Of a DNA stretch of 64,000 nt, positions 21,255 through 64,000 are shown piece by piece (within the stretch, counting starts at the first letter, position 1; each line of letters opens with the position of its first letter). This DNA comes from a virus: positions 1 to 64,000 of IMG/VR virus record IMGVR_UViG_3300010885_033832. The stretch is one strand, 5' to 3'. The position numbers and the translations under genes are program-made. The notes below the pieces were generated by a model. The model saw only the letters and a list, made by a program, of their open reading frames with translations. It was not told where the DNA came from and ran no database searches.

Positions 21255-22283
21255 TTAGGGCGCTCCAGTTGGGCCTGTCTGCGCGACTACCACGTTGTCG
21301 ATGGCGTTGTCAGCGTTGTAGTTGACGTTTCCAGGAACGTTGATAGCGATGTCGCTGTCAAGAGATCCTGTTGCAACTTCGGCGTAGGATCCGTAGCTCG
21401 TGACGGTTCCAGTGTCCGTGCCAGGTGCTGCAATAGTAGCTGTCTTGGCAACGGTGAAGGTAGTCGTCGTAGGAACAGTTGCAATGGTGTAGGTTCCATT
21501 GACGGTGGTACTTGTACCTGCCGCGATAGTTACCTCCTCACCAACGCGGAATCCGTGTGCGCCATCCGTGGTGACGGTAGTAACGCTACCAGCAGCAGTA
21601 ACGTTAGTGATCGTGTCAGTAACACCCCACGTGTAGAAGCCCTTGAGTCCGGTTGGAGCCCATGTCGAACGTGCGTACGAGTAGGGACGGTCCGAAGCCT
21701 GTGGGAACTCCCAGCGGTTGTCGGGTCCGAAGTCAAACGCAATGTTTCCAAGGCCGTAACCTTCGAATGTCGTTGCGAGCATTCCGTTCTCGATAACGCG
21801 GTCGCCCGACTGACGGAGCTTGGCGAATGGGAAAACCCAGTGGAAGTAGGGGTACGAAGCAGCCTTACGTCCATCCTTGATGGCAATCGACCAAGCTTCA
21901 ATGGAAACACCGTTACCAGCAGGGTCGTCTCCAACGCCGGGAGCAGCCCAACCAATGGACTGTACTGCCGATCCGGTGTTCTTGCGAAGCAAGAGTCCAC
22001 CAGAGAGGAGGGCCGAGAGTTCGGGGTCGGGCTCACAGATAGCGAGTTCCATTGTGATGCGCTTGAGTGTGTCGGGGGACTTGTATGTCACGCAGACAGC
22101 ACCGTTGGCGCTCTTTTCCGTGAATTCGTCACCTTCTTCATACTCGGGGGTGAACGATACGCGCATAAACGCGGATGTGGTGTATGAGTCACCAGCACCG
22201 TTCAGAAGGTTGCCGTTGGCATCGAGGCGGGTAACACGAATGGCAACACCTTGAATGCTGGCGGCGTAGTCTTGAGTAGCCAT
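21255..22283 (-). CDS. Major tail protein with a C-terminal beta-barrel (HGF) accessory domain
   Basis: SIQGVAIRVTRLD-NG, EEGDEFTEKSANG-VCV motifs; one complete TVTT--AHGF-VG...NGTYTI...TFT repeat. Confidence 0.85.
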   Translation of the reverse strand: MATQDYAASIQGVAIRVTRLDANGNLLNGAGDSYTTSAFMRVSFTPEYEEGDEFTEKSANGAVCVTYKSPDTLKRITMELAICEPDPELSALLSGGLLLRKNTGSAVQSIGWAAPGVGDDPAGNGVSIEAWSIAIKDGRKAASYPYFHWVFPFAKLRQSGDRVIENGMLATTFEGYGLGNIAFDFGPDNRWEFPQASDRPYSYARSTWAPTGLKGFYTWGVTDTITNVTAAGSVTTVTTDGAHGFRVGEEVTIAAGTSTTVNGTYTIATVPTTTTFTVAKTATIAAPGTDTGTVTSYGSYAEVATGSLDSDIAINVPGNVNYNADNAIDNVVVAQTGPTGAP

Positions 22284-54657: not shown

Positions 54658-54888
54658 CTATACGCCCATGGCCTCCAGCGTCAAGCTAAGACACGCTGAG
54701 CACGAGATCTGCACATCACCATCGTCGGCCATCACGGCCCATCTCTCGGTGCCTTGAGCATCCTGACACCCAGCGCAGGCAATACTTCTACCCTCGTCGA
54801 CGATGCCTGACTTCTCAACGGCGTCGAGGTCACAGCGAAGTCCGGCGTCGAACTTGACGACCTCGAACGCGCGTACGGTCATGCTCAT
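54658..54888 (-). CDS. Small CxxC...CxxC zinc-binding protein (76 aa)
   Basis: ATG overlaps the terminase TGA; CAGC and CSAC motifs. Confidence 0.6.
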   Translation of the reverse strand: MSMTVRAFEVVKFDAGLRCDLDAVEKSGIVDEGRSIACAGCQDAQGTERWAVMADDGDVQISCSACLSLTLEAMGV

Positions 54889-56303
54889 CGGACCCTGAAC
54901 TTCGATCCGCCAGCACCCTGCTGACCGATGCCGGGCAGGGTGAATCGGCGACCTGCTGGTGACTTGGCTGATAGCCCACCACCGAGGAATCCAGCGGGTG
55001 GCTTGATGAGCAACGCGGTCAGTGCATGCACGAGGGCGTCGACGCGGTCGGGGGACTTGCCCTCGCCAGGGATCCACGACATCATCTGGGACTCGAGCTG
55101 AGGGAACACGCCCACGTGGTGGACACGGCCCTGCTCATACGCGAGGGTGATCGGCTCAGCGCGGAGTGCCTTGCCATACTTGGAGTGCACCTCGAGGACC
55201 TTGATCGTGGGGTCGATTGTGTGGATGGCGTTCTTGACGAGCGCCCCACCCTGATTGACCTCGGCGACAACGGGGCATCCCCACTTCTTGGCCGCGGCGA
55301 CAACGGCCTGTGCCCACACGGTGGGGGACCCGAGGATAGATGTATCCTCGAGTACCCATGACTGACGCTTATACAAGTCTCGTTCGCCCGTTGAGCCTAC
55401 CACGACGATGCCACACTCGTCCTTGGGGCTCTCGGCGACGGATGGGTCGACACCGATCACGCGCAGTGGCATCTGTGGCGGGTAGGCACCCTGTCGATAG
55501 TTGTCGATGATGTCTTCGGTCCAGAGCGCACCATCAACGGAGTCGAGCATCTCACCATAGAGCTCTTGAGCGGCGAGGGAAGTACCACCATAGACACCGA
55601 GCATGGTATCGAGGTACGCGCTCGACAGGTTCCCGGCGTTGTCCATCGTCGATCCGCGAGTGACACGGACGCGGTTGGGGTGTTCCTCGGATTCCTTGAG
55701 AAGTTCGCGGAGCATGGCCACGCGCTTCGGTGTGGTCGTGATCATGATCTTGGGGACGGCTCCGAGACGCGTAGCGATACGGAGGTTCTGCCACGCGGTC
55801 AGTCCCGAGTCGTCGGGCATCTGTCGCCAAGCGGCGGCCTCGTCGGCGAGTGACGCGTGGAACTGTGGACCACGGAGAAGGTTGGGTTCGTCGGCGGAGA
55901 ACGTCGTCGCGATGGTTCCGTTGGGCCACGTCAGTCGTCGCTTCGACGGCTCGTACAGTGGCATCTCACTCGGTGGTGAGATCGACATAATCCCTGACTG
56001 TCCTTCGACCACAACGTCGCGGGCGTCGGCGGCTGTACGGGCAACGATGGCGATACGCTTCGGCCCTGTCTTACTGATGTCGCGGGCTTGCTCTCTGAGC
56101 CACTCGGCTCCGGTCCGGGTCTTACCCCAACCACGACCCGCGAGGGCAATCCAGATGTTCCAGTCACCATCCGGCGCGTGTTGTTCGGGGCGACCCCAGA
56201 ACGACCAATCCCACAGCAGACCCTCGGGGTCCATACCTGCCATCATCCGAGCGCGATCGTCGGGGGATAGCTCAGCGATTACCTGCGCGAGTGACTTCGA
56301 CAT
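54885..56303 (-). CDS. terL: Terminase large subunit
   Basis: AGRGWGKT Walker A, LRGPQF--SLADEAAAW Walker B, TTTP, VIGVDPS and DRVDAL nuclease motifs. Confidence 0.93.
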   Translation of the reverse strand: MSKSLAQVIAELSPDDRARMMAGMDPEGLLWDWSFWGRPEQHAPDGDWNIWIALAGRGWGKTRTGAEWLREQARDISKTGPKRIAIVARTAADARDVVVEGQSGIMSISPPSEMPLYEPSKRRLTWPNGTIATTFSADEPNLLRGPQFHASLADEAAAWRQMPDDSGLTAWQNLRIATRLGAVPKIMITTTPKRVAMLRELLKESEEHPNRVRVTRGSTMDNAGNLSSAYLDTMLGVYGGTSLAAQELYGEMLDSVDGALWTEDIIDNYRQGAYPPQMPLRVIGVDPSVAESPKDECGIVVVGSTGERDLYKRQSWVLEDTSILGSPTVWAQAVVAAAKKWGCPVVAEVNQGGALVKNAIHTIDPTIKVLEVHSKYGKALRAEPITLAYEQGRVHHVGVFPQLESQMMSWIPGEGKSPDRVDALVHALTALLIKPPAGFLGGGLSAKSPAGRRFTLPGIGQQGAGGSKFRVR

Positions 56304-56325
56304 GACACAATCCTACCTAAAGGTT

Positions 56326-56351
56326 GGACCCCCTAGAAAACTAGGGGGTCC
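56326..56351 (-). terminator. Hairpin between thioredoxin and terminase genes
   Basis: GGACCCCCTAG-AAAA-CTAGGGGGTCC perfect 11-bp inverted repeat. Confidence 0.65.
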
Positions 56352-56373
56352 CGACGGCGACGACAGCAGGGCG

Positions 56374-56694
56374 TTATACGAGGTAGTCCGATAGGTCAGA
56401 CTCGAGGGCTGGGCGTGGCTTCGCGCCGACAATTGTCTTGACGACTTCTCCGCCAACGAACACCTTCATCGTCGGAATCGAGACAACACCATACGCGGTG
56501 GGTGTCTCGGGATCCTCTTCGATGTTCAGCTTCACGATTGTAAGGCTGGGGTATTCATCGGCGATAGCGTCAAGTACTGGACCAACGGCGCGGCAGGGGC
56601 CACACCATTCAGCCCAGAAGTCAACGAGGACCGGACCCTCGGCGCTGAGCACATCGGCGTCGAAGGTCGAGTCGGTTGTTTTTCCAGCGGGCAC
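56374..56694 (-). CDS. trxA: Thioredoxin
   Basis: VLVDFWAEWCGPC active site, SIPT cis-Pro motif, GAKP. Confidence 0.95.
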   Translation of the reverse strand: MPAGKTTDSTFDADVLSAEGPVLVDFWAEWCGPCRAVGPVLDAIADEYPSLTIVKLNIEEDPETPTAYGVVSIPTMKVFVGGEVVKTIVGAKPRPALESDLSDYLV

Positions 56695-57068
56695 TACACA
56701 ACCACCTTGACGGTGTTGTCACCCTTGAAGATAGCCTTGAGTGTATCGGCGTTGAGGACGTCGGTCACCTCGAGTCGGTTCTTCGACTGGAACTGCTGAA
56801 CGGCGATCTGGGTACCGTTCTGGTAGACACCGGGCTTGTCCCCAATTACGGACACGAACTCAAGTTCGCGGAGGCGACGCTGAAGTTCGGTGACGCTGGT
56901 GGACTCGCGCTGGTGCAGTGGGTTCTGCAGAATCGCAGCGAGCACAACCTGAACGGCGGTGCTCGGTGCTTCGACAGACGCGGGGGCAGACGGCGCAGCG
57001 GGCTTGGACGGAGTCGAGGCGGGCTCGAAGGGTTCGGGGACGATGGAGTCGATGTTGTTATCAGTCAT
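56694..57068 (-). CDS. Peptidoglycan-binding-domain protein
   Basis: VTELQRRLRELEF...GVY--GTQIAVQQFQ...LEVT motif; start reassigned to MTDNNID from the leaderless -10. Confidence 0.7.
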   Translation of the reverse strand: MTDNNIDSIVPEPFEPASTPSKPAAPSAPASVEAPSTAVQVVLAAILQNPLHQRESTSVTELQRRLRELEFVSVIGDKPGVYQNGTQIAVQQFQSKNRLEVTDVLNADTLKAIFKGDNTVKVVV

Positions 57069-57088
57069 GGAATTCATTCTACCGAAGG

Positions 57089-57274
57089 TTACTCACCCTT
57101 ACTCGAGAGGACGGCGAGCGCCACCGCGGCCAGTCCTAGAGCTTGGATAGTAGCGAACGGATTACCGAGATCGACGGCGACGACTATCGCAGCGACGGCG
57201 AGCGCCAGCGCGACGACAGGTAGCCAGTTGGTGTTGCTGATGATGAAACGGATTCGTCGGAGTAGTTGATTCAT
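57089..57274 (-). CDS. Small two-TM membrane protein (holin-like)
   Basis: Two hydrophobic helices; next to the peptidoglycan-binding gene. Confidence 0.55.
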   Translation of the reverse strand: MNQLLRRIRFIISNTNWLPVVALALAVAAIVVAVDLGNPFATIQALGLAAVALAVLSSKGE

Positions 57275-57286
57275 ACCGAAATCCTA

Positions 57287-57466
57287 TCACGACTCTTCAT
57301 CGCGGATCGTGGCCCGGAGATCGTCGGCGCGAGTACGTCGGCGCTTCGTGCGCTTGTCGGCATGCGTTCCCCACGCGTTCGATTGGGCGCGCTCGGCGTC
57401 TGCCCGTGCCTTGTCTGGATTCGCAGCGGGCACGTAACGGCGTGGCTTCTTGTCGTCGGCGCTCAT
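57287..57466 (-). CDS. Small basic protein (59 aa)
   Basis: MSADDKKPRR...AWGTHADKRTKRRRTR; TACAAT 6 nt before ATG. Confidence 0.6.
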   Translation of the reverse strand: MSADDKKPRRYVPAANPDKARADAERAQSNAWGTHADKRTKRRRTRADDLRATIRDEES

Positions 57467-57709
57467 CCCCCCATTGTACCGCGAGCGCCGGAGTCCCGTC
57501 AACGGCGCTCAGCGCCTCTCTGACGGCGTAACGCGTTCCGGCCACTACGACAGACGGCCTGCCGGAGTGACGCGTCTAACGACGGCGCAGAGCGTCGGCG
57601 AGCGCCTAACGGCGTCGGCGTCCGGCGTCCGCGATCGCAGCGCAACGGCGAGCGCCGACCAACGGCGAAACGCCCAACCGTTTCCACTCGGCTGGGCGTT
57701 TCGTCGGCG

Positions 57710-57925
57710 CTAGTTGTTCGGGTCGAATTCTTCGACGTGGCGGACGTTGCAGACTTCGCAGTCGTCGACGATGGCGAGCGCCTTACCGTCGGCGAAGTAC
57801 TGGAACGTGGCGGGCTGGTTGTGGAGCGTGGTGTCGTCGTTGTCCCAGCCACAGGCTCGGAATCCAAACTCTCCCTCGTTCTCGGCGACGCACCCGTTTG
57901 GGTCGGTGTCGTAGTATCCGCTCAT
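57710..57925 (-). CDS. Cassette gene: Cys-containing hypothetical protein (71 aa)
   Basis: GAAAGGA RBS, own promoter and downstream hairpin at 57666-57703. Confidence 0.7.
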   Translation of the reverse strand: MSGYYDTDPNGCVAENEGEFGFRACGWDNDDTTLHNQPATFQYFADGKALAIVDDCEVCNVRHVEEFDPNN

Positions 57926-58137
57926 TGTGTTTCCTTTCGTCGCGGTCGGCGTTTCCTCCCGCGTAATCAGTCTATCGGCGGGCACCGACATGTAATAGCC
58001 TCCCCTCCCCGACTGTGGCCGGAATCAGGCCGGCCATCGATGGCCACAACGTCACGACGACGAGCGCCGAAGTCGCCGCGGACAGTCGACGCAGACGACG
58101 AAACGCCTACCCTTTCGGGTAGGCGTTTCGGAGGGAC

Positions 58138-58383
58138 TCACGCCTGAGGGTAGGCGCGAGTGGACAGGCTCTCGGTGCTCTGAGCGAGTCGGGCAAACGT
58201 CTTCGCGAGACGGTACAGTGCGTCTCCGACGACGACGCGGACGCGGTACTCGGCGTCGACCTTCGGCGTGAAGGGGTAATCCTCCGTGATGGTCGCAACG
58301 ATGTCGGCATAGCACGTCGCGCAGACTGCGTCGTACGCTCCGTCGGCGAAGTTGGCAGAGCAAAGGCGCTCGTCGTGGTACAT
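58138..58383 (-). CDS. Cassette gene: hypothetical protein (81 aa)
   Basis: GAAAGGA RBS, MYHDERLC...CATC; hairpin at 58099-58130. Confidence 0.7.
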   Translation of the reverse strand: MYHDERLCSANFADGAYDAVCATCYADIVATITEDYPFTPKVDAEYRVRVVVGDALYRLAKTFARLAQSTESLSTRAYPQA

Positions 58384-58530
58384 GGTCGATTCCTTTCGGT
58401 TGGGGAGGCGTGTTCCTCCGTGACTCCACTCTATTGGCGAGCGCCGACATGTAACGGTATCCCCTCCCCATCGGCGAGCGCCGCACAACGACAAACAGCC
58501 TCCCCGAAGGGAGGCTGTCGGTCGTCCAAG

Positions 58531-58725
58531 TCAGGCGAAGTCGGGGAGGTGATACTTTGCGGCGAGAGCGGATTCCATTGCTTGGAGCGAGGCGATGGAC
58601 TCGGCGATGTGGTCGCGCATATCTCCGACCTCGTTCGCTTTCCACAGCACCATCGCGTCGGTGAGTGACGCGGCGGCGGCCGCGTAGTTTGACAGCACAG
58701 CGCTGTCGGTAGCGTCGTACAACAT
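58531..58725 (-). CDS. Cassette gene: hypothetical helical protein (64 aa)
   Basis: GAAGGAG RBS; hairpin at 58495-58518. Confidence 0.7.
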   Translation of the reverse strand: MLYDATDSAVLSNYAAAAASLTDAMVLWKANEVGDMRDHIAESIASLQAMESALAAKYHLPDFA

Positions 58726-58836
58726 GGTGACTCCTTCGATTCGGGAGGCGTGTTCCTCCGTGATATCAGACTACGGCACGGCACGGACAAACAACAACCT
58801 CCCCTCCCCGAATCGGGAGGAGAGGTTGTCGGCGCG

Positions 58837-59031
58837 TCAGAGGATTATCGGCTCAACGACTAGGCGCGTTTCGTTCAGCGCACCGCAACCGCACCGATAC
58901 CATTGCGCGATTCGACCATCGGTGCGCCAGATGATATGAATGGTCGGGTGTTCGTGACCGACTCGGCATCGTGGGCAACGGTGATTCAGCGGGGAACGGC
59001 GTTCCTCCGTCTGGATGATATCGTCTAACAT
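58837..59031 (-). CDS. Cassette gene: zinc-ribbon-like protein (64 aa)
   Basis: CPRC...CGC; GAAAGGA RBS. Confidence 0.7.
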   Translation of the reverse strand: MLDDIIQTEERRSPLNHRCPRCRVGHEHPTIHIIWRTDGRIAQWYRCGCGALNETRLVVEPIIL

Positions 59032-59128
59032 TCGGGATTCCTTTCGTTCGTGATTCCAGACTACGGCCGCAACGGCATAGACGGCGATAGCCCCCCTGAC
59101 GGTGTGTCAGAGGGGCTACCGTATGGCG

Positions 59129-59365
59129 TTACGCTTGGCGAGCGTATCGGGCAACCGCATCGGCAATTCGCGTACCGATGTAGTCGGGCGTGAGCATCGA
59201 ACGGCGAGGCGCGCGTGCTTGGGCGAACCGTCCAGAGGTGTTGCCGACCTCGTGAACGATGACAACATAATCGCTACGCGAGATGTTGCCGAGGTAGCGG
59301 AGTAGGTACTCCGCACCCTCGTAGGTGAACGGCGTGAGGGTGCCGCGTTTGAGTGTGATGGACAT
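59129..59365 (-). CDS. Cassette gene: hypothetical protein (78 aa)
   Basis: AAAGGAGG RBS; flanked by promoter and hairpin. Confidence 0.72.
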   Translation of the reverse strand: MSITLKRGTLTPFTYEGAEYLLRYLGNISRSDYVVIVHEVGNTSGRFAQARAPRRSMLTPDYIGTRIADAVARYARQA

Positions 59366-59456
59366 TGTGTCCTCCTTTCGTTTTCAGACTACGGCATACC
59401 CCCGACACGAAACAACCAACCCCCACCGCATAGGCGGTGAGGGTTGGCGTTTGGCG

Positions 59457-59687
59457 TTACCGCGAGCGCCGAAGACTACGGCGGTACACTTCTTCCCCGA
59501 CATTCCAACTGAGTAGGGCAGAGGCGACAACGATACAACCGACAACCATAACGCGGTCGAATGTAGCGTTGTAGGACAGTCCCGACATCTCGGCGGAACG
59601 GGCGAGGCTATCGGCGGTAAGCGCGGTGACAACCGCAACCGCATACAGCCCCAGCGCCATAAGGGCGCGGAATCGACGAATGGACAT
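59457..59687 (-). CDS. Cassette gene: two-TM membrane protein (76 aa)
   Basis: Two hydrophobic segments; AAAGGAG RBS. Confidence 0.68.
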   Translation of the reverse strand: MSIRRFRALMALGLYAVAVVTALTADSLARSAEMSGLSYNATFDRVMVVGCIVVASALLSWNVGEEVYRRSLRRSR

Positions 59688-59790
59688 TCCATTCTCCTTT
59701 CGTTGGTGATATCAGATTACAACGGCGAGCGCCGAAACGGCAACAACCCCCCACCGCATAAGCGATAGGGGGTTGTCGGCGGCGACTACT

Positions 59791-59895
59791 TCATCGGTTG
59801 AAGACGAAGTCGAGGTCGTGCGTGTGGTACGCAATTCCCTCGGTGTCGCGAGTACCGCACTCGGGGCACGGGTCGGTGAGGTCACCAGTAGCCAT
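59791..59895 (-). CDS. Cassette gene: CxxC microprotein (34 aa)
   Basis: AAGGAGG RBS; MATGDLTDPCPECG...HTHD. Confidence 0.6.
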   Translation of the reverse strand: MATGDLTDPCPECGTRDTEGIAYHTHDLDFVFNR

Positions 59896-60017
59896 AAGAG
59901 TCACCTCCTTGGGGCAACGGCGTGGGGCGTGTCCCCCACGCCGACAACGATACGCGGCCCCACGCCGACAACGCAACAACCCCCCACGCCGATTGGCGTG
60001 AGGGGCTGTTGGTGGCG

Positions 60018-60419
60018 TTACTCGGCGGTGGCTTCGGCGGTAACGGGGGCGTTCGCGTTGGACACTACAACGCGCTTGGCTTCAGCGGTACACCAGAACA
60101 GGTCGTGACCGAGCGTTTCCGCTTCGATTTCGACATTCGTTCCCGTGCGGTCGTCGGTCTGCCAATCGCGAACGCGCAAGCGACCGACGACTACGATACG
60201 GTCGCCCTTGTTCAGCGACGCCATTGAGTTCACGGCGAGAGCGCGGAACGCCGTGACCGTGTACCAATTGGTCGAAGCGTCAAGCCACTTTTCAGTAGCC
60301 TTGTCGTATCGTCGCTGTGACGACGCGAGGCGGAATGAAGTGATGGGCAGACCTTCTGCCGTCACGATATGGCGTGGTGTCGTGGCGATAAGCCCCGTCA
60401 CCGTGAGCGTGTCGCTCAT
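60018..60419 (-). CDS. ssb: Single-stranded DNA-binding protein (short, no acidic tail)
   Basis: OB-fold motifs SFRLASSQRRYD, WYTVTAF--LA-N, KGDRIVVVGRL, EIEAETLGHDL; start at MSDTLTV. Confidence 0.92.
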   Translation of the reverse strand: MSDTLTVTGLIATTPRHIVTAEGLPITSFRLASSQRRYDKATEKWLDASTNWYTVTAFRALAVNSMASLNKGDRIVVVGRLRVRDWQTDDRTGTNVEIEAETLGHDLFWCTAEAKRVVVSNANAPVTAEATAE

Positions 60420-60532
60420 GTGATTCTCCCTTGCTTGTGTGAGCCGTGTTGCCCACACCTCAACGATAGCGCGGCCACACCCGACAACGCAACAACCCCC
60501 CCACCGCATAAGCGATAGGGGGTTGTCGGCGG

Positions 60533-60712
60533 TTAGACAGGTTCGTTGTTGATTGTTCCGTTGGCGCAGGCTTGGTTGTATTCCTCAACTAGTCGCGTTG
60601 CGTTGTCCACTACGATAAAGTTCGCACCTACTCCCTCACCGAAGATACCCTCTTCGGTAATCGCGCGAGTGATGAGCGTGTGGGCTTGTTTCAGGATTTC
60701 GTAATCCGTCAT
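60533..60712 (-). CDS. Cassette gene: hypothetical protein (59 aa)
   Basis: Manual translation MTDYEILKQAHTLITRAITEEG...; GAAAGGA RBS; not in the ORF track. Confidence 0.65.
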   Translation of the reverse strand: MTDYEILKQAHTLITRAITEEGIFGEGVGANFIVVDNATRLVEEYNQACANGTINNEPV

Positions 60713-60780
60713 TTCGTTCCTTTCGTTCGGTTGAGAGTGTAGCGCGCCACCGTGTTCCCAACGGTGGCGCGCCGTGTCAC

Positions 60781-60963
60781 CTATTCGGTGACGGTGGCGT
60801 TCGCCGTGTTATCGGCGTTAGCCGTAGAGAGCTTTTCGATTTGGGCGTTGATTTCGCCCAACCGCATAGCGTTCTCCACCATCAACTCTGCCACCGTGTT
60901 TCGCATTTCTTTTAGGGTGGCGATTGAGTTTTCCAGAAACTCAATCTGTTCTTGCTTGTCCAT
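60781..60963 (-). CDS. Cassette gene: coiled-coil protein (60 aa)
   Basis: MDKQEQIEFLENSIATLKEM...; GAAAGGT RBS. Confidence 0.65.
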   Translation of the reverse strand: MDKQEQIEFLENSIATLKEMRNTVAELMVENAMRLGEINAQIEKLSTANADNTANATVTE

Positions 60964-61071
60964 TGGACACCTTTCGATTAGCGGGGCGTGTTCCCCACAT
61001 TCACAACGATACGCCGAACGCCGAACAAACGCCAACACCCCCCACCTTTCGGCGGGGGGTGTCGCGTTCCG

Positions 61072-61197
61072 TTATTTCAGTTTGTCCAAGATTGCCATTA
61101 TCTCGGCGCGTTGTGCTTCGGGCAACGCTTCGATTCGTTCCGCAGCGTCGGGGACGAAAAGGCTATCCAAATCGTCGGGGTTAGTCCAGTCGAACAT
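61072..61197 (-). CDS. Cassette gene: acidic microprotein (41 aa)
   Basis: MFDWTNPDDLDSLF...; GAAAGGA RBS. Confidence 0.62.
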   Translation of the reverse strand: MFDWTNPDDLDSLFVPDAAERIEALPEAQRAEIMAILDKLK

Positions 61198-61302
61198 TGT
61201 TTCCTTTCGGGGGCGGTTCCCCCATACCGCAAAGGTAGCACCGGCATCGGCCAGAACGCAAACACCCCCCACACCGTTAGGCGTAGGGGGCGTTCGTTCG
61301 CG

Positions 61303-61485
61303 TTACTTGTTCTTGGACTTGGTGAACGGTGAGTGGTTCATCGCGTAGATGTATTGGCGTTGACGGCGATTGAACCGTGGGCGGTGCTTGAGCAGATAGA
61401 ACCAGTTGATCGTGAATAGCGTGACGGCGATACCCGTCACGAAACTCGCGACAACCGTCACGATGAATATCGTGTCGTTGGACAT
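61303..61485 (-). CDS. Cassette gene: single-TM protein (60 aa)
   Basis: MSNDTIFIVTVVASFVTGIAVTLFTINWFYLL followed by a basic tail. Confidence 0.65.
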   Translation of the reverse strand: MSNDTIFIVTVVASFVTGIAVTLFTINWFYLLKHRPRFNRRQRQYIYAMNHSPFTKSKNK

Positions 61486-61550
61486 TGTTTCCCTCTCGTG
61501 AGAGTTGGGAACGGTGTGACCCTCTCGCGAGAGCCACACCGTTCGATGGA

Positions 61551-61838
61551 CTAGGGGAGGCGAACCGAAGTCACCGAAGCGACATTGGTGAACTCGCCTT
61601 TGGATACCGCTTCCGCGATAGCAGGGTACGCCGAGAGAATGGATTTGGTGTCCGTTGTCTTGCGTTCGGTGACGGTTACGCGAGCGATTGTCTGCCCTTT
61701 GTATTCCACCGTTCCCTCGCCGACCGCGCCGATGATGAGCGCGCGGAGCGTTTCACTCTGCTTGGTGAGTGTGTCGATTTCCGCCTTGAGAGCGCGGAAC
61801 TCGGCGACCGCGTCAGCGACCTTTTTGGTTACGACCAT
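61551..61838 (-). CDS. Cassette gene: hypothetical protein (95 aa)
   Basis: MVVTKKVADAVAEFRALKAEID...; GAAAGGA RBS. Confidence 0.7.
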   Translation of the reverse strand: MVVTKKVADAVAEFRALKAEIDTLTKQSETLRALIIGAVGEGTVEYKGQTIARVTVTERKTTDTKSILSAYPAIAEAVSKGEFTNVASVTSVRLP

Positions 61839-61950
61839 TGTCGTGTCCTTTCGTTGGGAGAGGGCGTGTCCCTCTCGTGATTCCACTCTACGCGGCCACA
61901 CCCGACAAACGCAAACACCCCCCACCTTTCGGTGGAGGGTGTTCGTGGCG

Positions 61951-62205
61951 TTAGCCGATGTAGCGAGCGTAAACGGTAACGCGCTTACTGCGGTTGGAGT
62001 TCTTGCGCGAAGTCGCTTCAAACGACCCAGCAGGGGTGAATCCAATCAAGATACCTCGCTTGATTGACACCACATAACTTGCTGGTGCGTTGTCGCTAAC
62101 GACGGCCCATTCTCCTGGATTTGCTTTGAGGGCTTTAGCAATCGCCCCGTACTTACCTGTTTGCACAGCGCGCTTCGGCGGTGCTTCCCAGCGGATTTTT
62201 ACCAC
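61951..62205 (-). CDS. Cassette gene: putative DNA-binding protein (84 aa)
   Basis: WEAPP...LKANPGEWAVV...FEATSR...VYARY pattern common in actinophages; AAAGGAG RBS. Confidence 0.68.
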   Translation of the reverse strand: MVKIRWEAPPKRAVQTGKYGAIAKALKANPGEWAVVSDNAPASYVVSIKRGILIGFTPAGSFEATSRKNSNRSKRVTVYARYIG

Positions 62206-62313
62206 GTCTCTCCTTTGCGAGGGGCGTGTCCCCTCTCGGTTCTACTTTACGACCAGAGCGAACACAACGCAAACAACCCCCCCACCCGATAGGGCAGGGG
62301 GGCGCGGTTGGGG

Positions 62314-62406
62314 CTAGTACCCGAACACCCACTCACCTTTGTGTTCGCAGGTGAAGAGCGCACCGCACTCGTCGCACGGCACTAGCACAATCTCTTCGTT
62401 GTCCAT
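62314..62406 (-). CDS. Cassette gene: CxxC microprotein (30 aa)
   Basis: Manual translation MDNEEIVLVPCDECGALFTCEHKGEWVFGY; AAAGGAG RBS, own promoter and hairpin. Confidence 0.58.
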   Translation of the reverse strand: MDNEEIVLVPCDECGALFTCEHKGEWVFGY

Positions 62407-62516
62407 CGGTTCTCCTTTGTTGGCAGGGCGTGTTCCCCACATCTCCACCGTACGCGATCGTGGGGCGAACCGACAAACACCCCCCACCCTTTCGGGTGAG
62501 GGGCGTTCGGTTCAGG

Positions 62517-63005
62517 CTACCAACTTGCTCGGTAGGTGAAGTCACAATCGGCGAGTGACTTGTTGGCGAGTATCTGCGAGAGTTCGTCACGAGTGGTTTC
62601 CAAGTCCTTCCAGTACCACTCGTCAATCTCGGTCGAACCGAAGAAGAAGCCAGCCTGTGGTGGCAGGTGTTCTTCCGCGATTGCCGTTCGGTTTGCTTCG
62701 CTCGCGCCGAGAATGATGTCGCACAGGTTTCGCAACGCTTCCAAGCCGTCACGCGGTACGCCGATTTCTTGGCACTCGTCAAGCCCATCAGCGAAGTTGC
62801 TCACGAACCATTGGTGAATGGCGTTCGCTTTCCGCCAATACATTACCGTCACAGCGAGGGTCGCAGACGGCGAGTATTCGGGCAGTATCGCAGGGTCGAA
62901 CCCTGCCGTTTCCAGCACACTCGCAAACTGCTCGCGGTCTGCTTCGGGTCGGTGTTCCCAACCCGATAGGTACTTCTCGGCAGATAGATACATATCCAGT
63001 CCCAT
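62517..63005 (-). CDS. Cassette gene: conserved phage protein (MGLDMYL...YWRKANAIH-WF family)
   Basis: Recognisable widespread phage family: YWRKANAIHQWFV, LPPQAGFFFGS, YRASW. Confidence 0.8.
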   Translation of the reverse strand: MGLDMYLSAEKYLSGWEHRPEADREQFASVLETAGFDPAILPEYSPSATLAVTVMYWRKANAIHQWFVSNFADGLDECQEIGVPRDGLEALRNLCDIILGASEANRTAIAEEHLPPQAGFFFGSTEIDEWYWKDLETTRDELSQILANKSLADCDFTYRASW

Positions 63006-63114
63006 TATGTTTCCTTTGCTTGGTGTGAACCGTGTTGCTCACATTTCCAAACTACGGCACCGGCGGCCACAACGCAAACAACCCCCCACCGTGAGGTGAG
63101 GGGTTGCTCGGCGG

Positions 63115-63321
63115 TCACTCGTATTGAGCGTGGATTACATCCCAGCAGGGGAAGCAGTACGGCTCTCCGTTGTCGCGGTGAGTTTTCTTACCACAGGCAT
63201 CACAGGGAACTTTCCCCTCTCCACCGTCATAGCACGAATAGCAGGTGTAACCGTCTTCTTCGAGAATGTCCTCGTCGAGTTGGTCGCAGGTACAGGTCGG
63301 GTTGTTCGGGTTCTTTTTCAT
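63115..63321 (-). CDS. Cys-rich zinc-binding protein (68 aa)
   Basis: CTC, CYSC, CDAC, CFPC; ATG overlaps the upstream TGA. Confidence 0.65.
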   Translation of the reverse strand: MKKNPNNPTCTCDQLDEDILEEDGYTCYSCYDGGEGKVPCDACGKKTHRDNGEPYCFPCWDVIHAQYE

Positions 63322-63449
63322 CAGTTCCCCTCGCAATCGTGTCCGTAGGACAGTTCCTGCTCGTCAACCTCGTTGGTCGGGTCGAACACTCGCGAGCATT
63401 CGACACACTTGAGCAGAAGTCCTGCTCGCGTAATGGTGAGTTCCATCAT
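63321..63449 (-). CDS. Cassette gene: CxxC...HxC microprotein (42 aa)
   Basis: Manual translation MMELTITRAGLLLKCVECSRVFDP...YGHDCEGN; GAAAGGA RBS. Confidence 0.62.
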   Translation of the reverse strand: MMELTITRAGLLLKCVECSRVFDPTNEVDEQELSYGHDCEGN

Positions 63450-63514
63450 CTCGGTTCCTTTCAGGGGCGGTTCCCCTCTACTTCCAATCTACGCGATCGG
63501 GGCGCAAACGCAAA

Positions 63515-63608
63515 GTACCCCCCGAGCGAAAGGGATAACTCTCGGGGGGCGTTTCTTTGTGTGTGGCGTTACCGTCAAGGGGTAAACACGATTCCCTGAC
63601 AACCACTC
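63515..63608 (-). ncRNA. Candidate ~90-nt small RNA (ORF-less cassette)
   Basis: Extended -10 TGTGG-TAGCCT (63614-63624), hairpin GUCAGGG/CCUUGAC with a loop containing CGUGUU, terminator hairpin at 63518-63549, no RBS-led ORF inside. Confidence 0.45.
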
Positions 63609-63691
63609 CGTCTAGGCTACCACACCGTGACGCGCGCAAAATACCAAAACAACGAACCCCCCTACCGAAGTAGAGGGGTTCGCGGTGACCG

Positions 63692-64000
63692 TCAGACGGT
63701 GAGGTTGCTTGCTTGGATTTCAGCGAGCGAGCGCGGTTCCCAGTAGAGGTCGCGTTCGACCATCATTCCCATCGGACCGACCACGCCTGAGAGTTCCGAG
63801 AGCGAGAAGTATCCCAACTCCATCTCGAAGCCGTTGACCAGACCGAAGAACTGGTCTTCGCCATCGAACTCGGTTGCGTACCAAGTCCAGTTCGCCCAGG
63901 GGGTGAAGTACTTGACCGTAGCCATCGTTTCCTCAAGCGACTTGTTCTCGTTCGTGTAGAGCGGTGGAAGTGCTGCGCGCACCTCGTCGTTCATCAGTTC
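63692..64000 (-). CDS. DUF2958-like protein (5' end may lie outside the window)
   Basis: LPPLY, VKYFTPWANWTWYATE, FFGLV-GFE-ELGYFSL-EL, ERDLYW. Confidence 0.8.
   Translation of the reverse strand, partial: ELMNDEVRAALPPLYTNENKSLEETMATVKYFTPWANWTWYATEFDGEDQFFGLVNGFEMELGYFSLSELSGVVGPMGMMVERDLYWEPRSLAEIQASNLTV

Follow-up and report, generated by a model that had tools for sequence, protein, structure and literature searches.

The small-gene cassette array

The record is an IMG/VR virus entry of 95,416 bp with an estimated completeness of ~56%, and the window, meaning the whole 64,000-nt stretch of DNA that was analysed, corresponds to its bases 1-64000. The large genes all lie on the minus strand and comprise tail genes, the genes for the major head protein, the portal and the large terminase, and an ORF of 4425 aa. 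The public sequencing runs in which the stretch is present are freshwater metagenomes. The best relatives of the terminase are found in Actinomycetia phage DSL-LC01 (67% identity at the amino acid level), in Microbacterium phages of ~190 kb (~58%) and in Gordonia phages; as these are all actinophages, the phage is taken to be an actinophage as well, and it is a virulent-looking phage of aquatic (freshwater) actinobacteria. A megablast search of GenBank phages with positions 56000-64000 returned no match. A sister phage, IMGVR_UViG_3300027499_000013, carries a terminase that is 99% identical.

Approximately 40 small-gene cassettes occupy the minus strand between ~57.9 kb and 76.5 kb. Each opens with a G/C-rich terminator hairpin, which is followed by a promoter, a leader hairpin and then a GAAAGGA ribosome site ahead of the start codon. 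The cassette promoter is often TTGCGT-N17/18-TAnnnT, with a -10 that mostly takes the form (c/t)G-TAnnnT-GGAA, and in the part of the array that holds the sites described here the -35 follows the hairpin and lies within its T/G-rich tail. In the upstream half of the array, beyond the window (64800-76500), the -35 hexamer (TTGCGC, TTGACC and others) is located in the loop of the preceding terminator hairpin, and the 3' arm of the terminator together with the T-tract forms the 17-nt spacer. The features of the downstream end of the array are as follows.

54885-56303, minus strand: large terminase
57710-57925, minus strand: gene A, 71 aa, ORFan, preceded by P_A, a leader hairpin and the ribosome site GAAAGGAAAC
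57969-57990, minus strand: promoter P_A, TGTCGG at 57985-57990, a 10-nt gap (N10) and -10 TAGACT at 57969-57974; no TTG -35
58138-58383, minus strand: gene B, 81 aa, ORFan, no family match
58428-58449, minus strand: promoter P_B, TGTCGG at 58444-58449 and -10 TAGAGT at 58428-58433; no TTG -35
58531-58725, minus strand: gene C, 64 aa, ORFan
58768-58789, minus strand: promoter P_C, TGTCCG, N10, -10 TAGTCT
58837-59031, minus strand: gene D, with cassette -10 TAGTCT at 59058-59063
59129-59365, minus strand: gene E, 78 aa, ORFan
59386-59407, minus strand: promoter P_E, TGTCGG, N10, -10 TAGTCT
59947-59976, minus strand: off-register copy, TTGCGT, TGTCGG, N12, TATCGT, with an 18-nt spacer between -35 and -10
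60463-60492, minus strand: off-register copy before the SSB gene, TTGCGT, TGTCGG, N12, TATCGT
61885-61914, minus strand: off-register copy, TTGCGT, T, TGTCGG, N11, TAGAGT
65035, just outside the window: TGTCCG-N10-TACGGT, with a TTG hexamer at 18 nt

An earlier reading made from the sequence alone had proposed that the four N10 sites of the window match the DNA-damage motif recognised by the actinobacterial activator PafBC, and had noted TGTCGG at 11-12 nt in three TTGCGT-type promoters as well. All four N10 sites were confirmed on the minus strand, as were the three copies at wider spacing (59947 and 60463 at N12, 61885 at N11). Each of the three TGTCGG-N10 sites is followed, after 40-60 nt, by a start codon that has a good ribosome site. 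The box sites are best read as genuine promoters of the housekeeping-sigma type within the small-gene cassette array.

Neither Pfam nor PHROGs gave a match for any of the six genes A to F, and genes A and B had no relatives among the viral contigs searched at the protein level; promoter conservation ahead of orthologous genes can therefore be followed in the sister phage only. That phage has no homologue of gene A, B, C or E. The SSB gene (60018-60419, minus strand; Pfam SSB, E 1e-16) sits in the array as one of its cassettes, and the sister phage contains a second SSB-like match at 21475-21756 that is 48% identical. One contig from an RNA library spans 57708-57875, over gene A, with 100% identity and so hints weakly at expression, and a second gives coverage of 61630-61870. 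The public runs were read as Logan contigs, which report presence and carry no transcript starts, strand or level, such that uncovered bins of RNA runs are uninformative.

The TGTC(G/C)G box is locked in register with the -10

The pattern TGTCGG-N10-TANNNT has exactly three matches in the 95,416 bp, all on the reverse (coding) strand and within 1.4 kb, and the backwards control of the same pattern has none in the record. Shuffles of the window hold 0.4 matches on average and only 1 of 100 reaches three. The sister phage contains eight matches to TGTCSG-N10-TANNNT, all forward, with no reverse and no control matches, and a ninth box site there has CATACT as its -10. The two phages were then considered together in a set of 77 curated promoters anchored on the -10. 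TGTC starts 16 nt before the -10, which is the PafBC register, in 14 of the 77, and any other register holds it in at most four. The peak persists in a non-redundant set of 45 sequences (11 of 45, other registers at most four), and when the upstream segments were rotated at random, 0 of 20,000 trials gave a peak as high as the observed one, in the full and in the non-redundant set alike. When the promoters are grouped by single linkage at 80% identity, TGTC in the PafBC register falls in 9 of 43 clusters.

The surroundings of the box vary while its distance to the -10 does not. The N10 spacers and the upstream sequence diverge widely among the copies, and the distance from hairpin to box varies between 8 and 12 nt, whereas the distance from box to -10 is constant. 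At N10, 14 promoters carry the exact hexamer and only two a version with one mismatch. At N12, by contrast, it is exact in three of seven promoters, and the G of GTC has been lost in the other four (TTTCGG or TATCGG); one example is the sister-phage orthologue of the SSB promoter at 60463-60492, which has TTTCGG in place of TGTCGG. Exactness at N10 against decay at N12 is the pattern expected from selection on the box at the former spacing and none at the latter, and to judge by these alignments the box behaves as if under selection at N10 and not at N12. The strongest evidence against a chance origin is the locking of register. In a subset of the promoters, a gap of exactly 10 nt thus separates the -10 from a second element, TGTC(G/C)G, and it is highly probable that this N10 element (TGTCSG) is a real sub-element of the promoter, constrained in its position.

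Reading nTGTCS as a -35 hexamer in its own right was rejected, since the spacer would then be only 11 nt. In the freshwater DNA run X6, the N11 promoter at 61885-61907 has four spacer substitutions and none listed in the box. It also lacks one nucleotide at 61895 and has gained one immediately upstream of the box. These paired indels would set the box at N10 with the 18-nt distance between -35 and -10 kept, which is a hint only.

Box promoters are a minority among the TTGCGT-type promoters of the array, 5 of 37 in the studied phage (~1 in 7), and they cluster at its downstream end, adjoining the terminase and structural genes. They head four of the last five cassettes in the studied phage and, in the sister phage, six of the final eight. 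This clustering fits either a temporal class of promoters or local duplication.

Box promoters with and without a -35

The four window sites are not uniform with respect to the -35. As the sequence-only reading held, P_A (57969) and P_B (58428) have no TTG 16-19 nt upstream of the -10, and they are the only such cases, given that a TTG is present at 17-18 nt in 12 of the 14 box promoters (three of five in the studied phage, nine of nine in the sister). P_C has TTGTTG 18 nt upstream of its -10, within the terminator tail (hairpin 58801-58825), and its orthologous promoter is present in the sister phage; P_E has TTGTTT at the same distance, directly behind the terminator hairpin at 59415-59448. 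The TTG of the 12 promoters lies in the T/G-rich terminator tail and in some cases could be there by chance. Known PafBC promoters combine a SigA -10 with no -35 (PMC8635444), and promoters with a TTG at 17-18 nt appear to depart from this. These 12 may be ordinary promoters to which an extra element has been added.

The two sites that do lack a -35 should not be counted twice. P_A and P_B are clear paralogues that have GGGGAGGGGA-N5-TTACATGTCGG in common, and hence are not independent events. Furthermore, the promoter of gene D has neither box nor TTG -35 and is kept in the sister phage, so that it provides an internal contrast: the absence of a -35 is by itself no proof of dependence on an activator, and a -10 alone may be sufficient, as at this promoter. 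A recognisable -35 is also often missing from actinobacterial promoters (PMC8635444).

pafBC in the likely host family

The in vivo consensus of PafBC promoters is tGTCgg(N10)tA(N3)T, in which GTC is contacted by Arg46 and Arg50 of PafB and the box lies at -23 to -28, and PafC touches sigma region 4 in what has been termed 'sigma adaptation' (PMC8635444). PafBC is activated by ssDNA of at least 6 nt and binds only RNAP-SigA that is already seated on such a promoter (PMC11804915). The consensus of these RecA-NDp promoters and the sensing of single strands by PafBC had been stated accurately in the earlier reading (PMC8635444, PMC11804915). Judged by its letters and spacing, the TGTC(G/C)G element of the phage coincides in sequence and position with the -26 element of host DNA-damage promoters, the one recognised by PafB. 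P_A, with TGTCGGTG-N8-TAGACT, also satisfies the older wording of RecA-NDp.

A ribonucleotide reductase of the phage (L019:11392-14754) is 72-79% identical to Microbacteriaceae proteins, with matches in Cryobacterium, Conyzicola, Pseudolysinimonas, Protaetiibacter and Gryllotalpicola, which is consistent with the Microbacterium phages among the terminase relatives. From the similarity of these two proteins, the host family is likely Microbacteriaceae. Adjacent (tandem) WYL genes are present in five of five Microbacteriaceae genomes; in a Cryobacterium MAG the pair consists of a PafB-like protein (WYL and WCX) and PafC (HTH_PafC, WYL and WCX), followed by tatC. HTH_PafC occurs in 149 of the 151 genomes of the family that were sampled, among them genomes of 1.2-1.7 Mb, and recA is preceded by aT-TGTCnn-N10-TAnnGT in all five genomes with the tandem WYL genes. 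A host lineage without pafBC would have spoken against the sequence-only reading; the inferred host family has both pafB-pafC and the recA box.

A phage-encoded WYL domain was not found in the 95 kb of the record, which is ~56% complete. The LexA SOS box TCGAAC-N4-GTTCGA, with up to two mismatches, occurs six times in the window against 4.0 expected, which is no enrichment, and not at all within 57900-59500.

Related promoters in other phages

A pattern scan of IMG/VR followed by counting identified four unrelated contigs of aquatic actinophages (L124, L129, L159 and L181; GC 35-44%) in which almost all small genes have aaaTGTC(A/G)GTGG-N7-TAnnnT in front of them; the strand counts are 17/5, 11/1, 11/0 and 9/0. 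As in the studied phage, the coding strand carries TGTC(R)G-N10-TAnnnT ahead of small genes whose ribosome site is GAAAGGA. Unlike in the studied phage, the box promoter is the dominant or sole type and the form aaaTGTCRGTGG is conserved. Several of these promoters have TTGAnA immediately upstream of the box, and a -35-like hexamer near the box is therefore not peculiar to the phage studied here.

In closer relatives the box is not seen. It is not above background in the terminase relatives (L005-L010) or the SSB relatives (L233-L238), and there is none in the first 50 kb of Microbacterium phage Cece or in Actinomycetia phage DSL-LC01. The latter (L016, OQ999401.1 24063-65421) has the same cassette layout with a different conserved promoter, ATTCTAAAG-N2-GTTATAAT. 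Given that closer relatives are without the box and unrelated actinophages have it, this promoter class is lineage-specific and has arisen or been retained separately in different groups of actinophages. In its full form, (g)ATTCTAAAG-N2-GTTATAAT-aGAATCA, the DSL-LC01 promoter is almost invariant in front of ~30 small genes; an inverted repeat lies within it, and a -35 hexamer is absent.

Comparison with known systems

The PafBC-dependent promoters of Mycobacterium and other Actinobacteria, of the RecA-NDp or recA P1 type, share with the phage sites the sequence tGTCgg-N10-tAnnnT with an invariant GTC and a box at approximately -23 to -28 upstream of a SigA-type -10 (PMC8635444, PMC11804915, PMC6789036). 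TGTC is present in all 14 register copies of the two phages (as TGTCGG in three and TGTCCG in two copies of the studied phage), P_A even has TGTCGGTG-N8-TAnnnT, and recA of the candidate host family is preceded by the same box. There are also differences: the phage sites precede ORFan genes and the known sites repair genes, most phage copies have a TTG -35-like hexamer at 17-18 nt that the known promoters are without, the fifth box position is C in about half of the phage copies, and the three window copies at N11 or N12 miss the fixed 10-nt gap.

The middle promoters of phage T4 likewise have an element between -35 and -10, namely a MotA box at -30, which acts with AsiA in 'sigma appropriation'; the adaptor sits between sigma region 4 and the DNA, as is proposed here for PafBC. 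This comparison between MotA/AsiA and PafBC has been drawn previously (PMC8635444). The T4 adaptors, however, are phage-encoded and remodel sigma, whereas in the 95 kb of the studied phage no such protein was found and the box copies the site of a host activator.

A third likeness concerns the cassettes themselves. The PeSL cassettes of T4-type phages, attributed to Arbiol et al. in 2010, reportedly consist of an early promoter and a stem-loop that flank shuffled small genes. The array of the studied phage is similar in that conserved segments of terminator, promoter and leader lie on either side of variable small ORFs, and close relatives have swapped ORFs at these segments. PeSLs differ in host phylum and promoter sequence, and they concern the mobility of cassettes and not a second promoter element.

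Origin and reader of the box

The exchange of cassettes bears directly on whether the box has a function. Between the studied phage (57900-60500) and its sister (L014/L015, sister positions 26-32 kb), promoter and leader segments are 76-94% identical. The promoter, leader and terminator segments are common to the close relatives while the ORFs between them differ, so that, as in PeSLs, conserved promoter and stem-loop segments flank ORFs that are not the same in close relatives. In the freshwater DNA run X6, cassette-sized joints at 59124/59384, which removes gene E, and at 57995/58735 were identified. In a recombinogenic region with paralogous promoters, the copies of the box are not independent events.

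It is therefore conceivable that the box is a functionless relic carried in duplicated regulatory segments that recombination has homogenised, and that its register lock reflects descent from one ancestral promoter. The relation between P_A and P_B, the promoter and leader segments that both phages share before unrelated ORFs and the cassette-sized joints in a related freshwater population are all in keeping with this, and TGTC also arises as part of the T/G-rich tail of the terminator and in TTGTCG, a variant of the -35. However, descent alone is an unlikely explanation for three reasons: first, the box is exact in 14 of 14 promoters despite divergent 10-nt spacers and gaps of 8-12 nt between hairpin and box. 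Second, the homologous hexamer at N12 has lost its G in four of seven promoters, while near-misses at N10 are almost absent. Third, the register peak is retained in the non-redundant set and was matched by none of the 20,000 rotations.

If the box is functional, its reader could be something other than PafBC, such as a phage factor comparable to T4 MotA with its -30 box, another host regulator of the WYL/HTH kind, or the polymerase itself through direct contact with the spacer. The register lock and the conservation of the box argue for function and do not name the reader. Most box promoters retain a -35-like TTG, unlike known PafBC promoters, and with ~56% of the genome in the record, a phage gene for such a factor may lie outside it. 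Against this, no WYL domain is encoded in the 95 kb of the record, the box and its spacing are identical to those of the recA box in all five candidate host genomes, and the same geometry, in the extended form TGTCRGTG, dominates unrelated actinophages, which points to a reader shared through the host. A reader other than PafBC is thus considered improbable.

It is very unlikely that the signal in the last cassettes before the terminase region is instead the oriented 10-mer GGCGCTCGCC, maybe an operator or a packaging-related repeat, with TGTCGG of P_B partly its by-product: the 10-mer has nine copies in the record, eight of them on the coding strand within 57113-59733, constitutes the spacer of P_B and fills, as copies or near-copies with one mismatch, those of the promoters at 59719 and 57473-57502, but three copies lie inside ORFs as Ala-Leu-Ala codons, at the other offset (59719) the hexamer reads TTTCGG, and the repeat accounts for at most the CGG of one box, not for TGT or for the other 13 sites, besides which it is compatible with a role for PafBC and not exclusive of it.

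A proposed role for host PafBC

The reading held most likely is that PafBC of the host reads the box, with stimulation coupled to ssDNA that would be strongest at P_A and P_B; from the sequence comparisons above, the chances of this are put at about even. Infection would generate single-stranded DNA, either through phage replication or through the breakdown of host DNA, and host PafBC activated by it would dock on RNA polymerase-SigA at the box promoters, which in turn would raise transcription of the downstream ORFan genes. Without a -35, P_A and P_B would show the greatest dependence on PafBC. P_C, P_E and the 65035 site have a TTG at 18 nt and would thus be dual-mode, with basal activity and a boost. 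The earlier claim that a subset of cassettes is wired to the PafBC response is upheld in part: the box is locked in register and the likely host family has pafBC and the recA box, while the -35-like TTG kept by 12 of the 14 box promoters appears to depart from the -35-less architecture expected of PafBC targets. The further suggestion that these promoters fire when phage DNA is attacked is speculation.

More generally, it is tentatively suggested, at somewhat less than even chances, that phages of aquatic actinobacteria use the host ssDNA alarm PafBC as a gene switch, which in the studied phage would take a hybrid form composed of a -35-like TTG, a -26 box and a -10, with basal expression and a boost tied to replication or damage. 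With similar reservation, such a hybrid switch possibly serves hypervariable ORFan cassettes adjoining the structural genes and does so without a phage adaptor, in which case it would be the counterpart, built on a host factor, of sigma appropriation in T4. Full-text searches of the literature that combined PafBC or RecA-NDp with promoters of phages turned up no account of PafBC-type promoters carried by a phage, the sole co-occurrence of the two being the comparison with T4 MotA/AsiA. What the window contributes is the minority hybrid variant and the contrast between N10 and N12.

If PafBC does read the boxes, a lytic phage would time some of its genes by the LexA-independent DNA-damage sensor of its host, and replication of the phage or attack on its DNA would be linked to phage expression with no phage-encoded regulator. 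'Sigma adaptation' would then extend from ~150 host repair genes to viral genomes, and the hybrid layout would lend itself to asking whether sigma region 4 and PafBC can take turns at one promoter. The promoters could also be of use as compact damage-responsive or infection-responsive parts for Microbacteriaceae and related actinobacteria.

A near-consensus promoter beside the array

Further copies of GGCGCTCGCC occur in a 240-bp non-coding stretch at 57466-57709. Within it, a near-consensus promoter, TTGACG-N18-TACAAT (57473-57502, minus strand), lies 6 nt before an ATG, and as a consequence its transcript would be leaderless. The ORF that follows (57297-57464, minus strand) encodes a very basic protein of 55 aa that is 93% identical in the sister phage. 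This promoter is the only one that a generic sigma-70 scan detects; the cassette promoters are missed because they differ from the E. coli hexamers.
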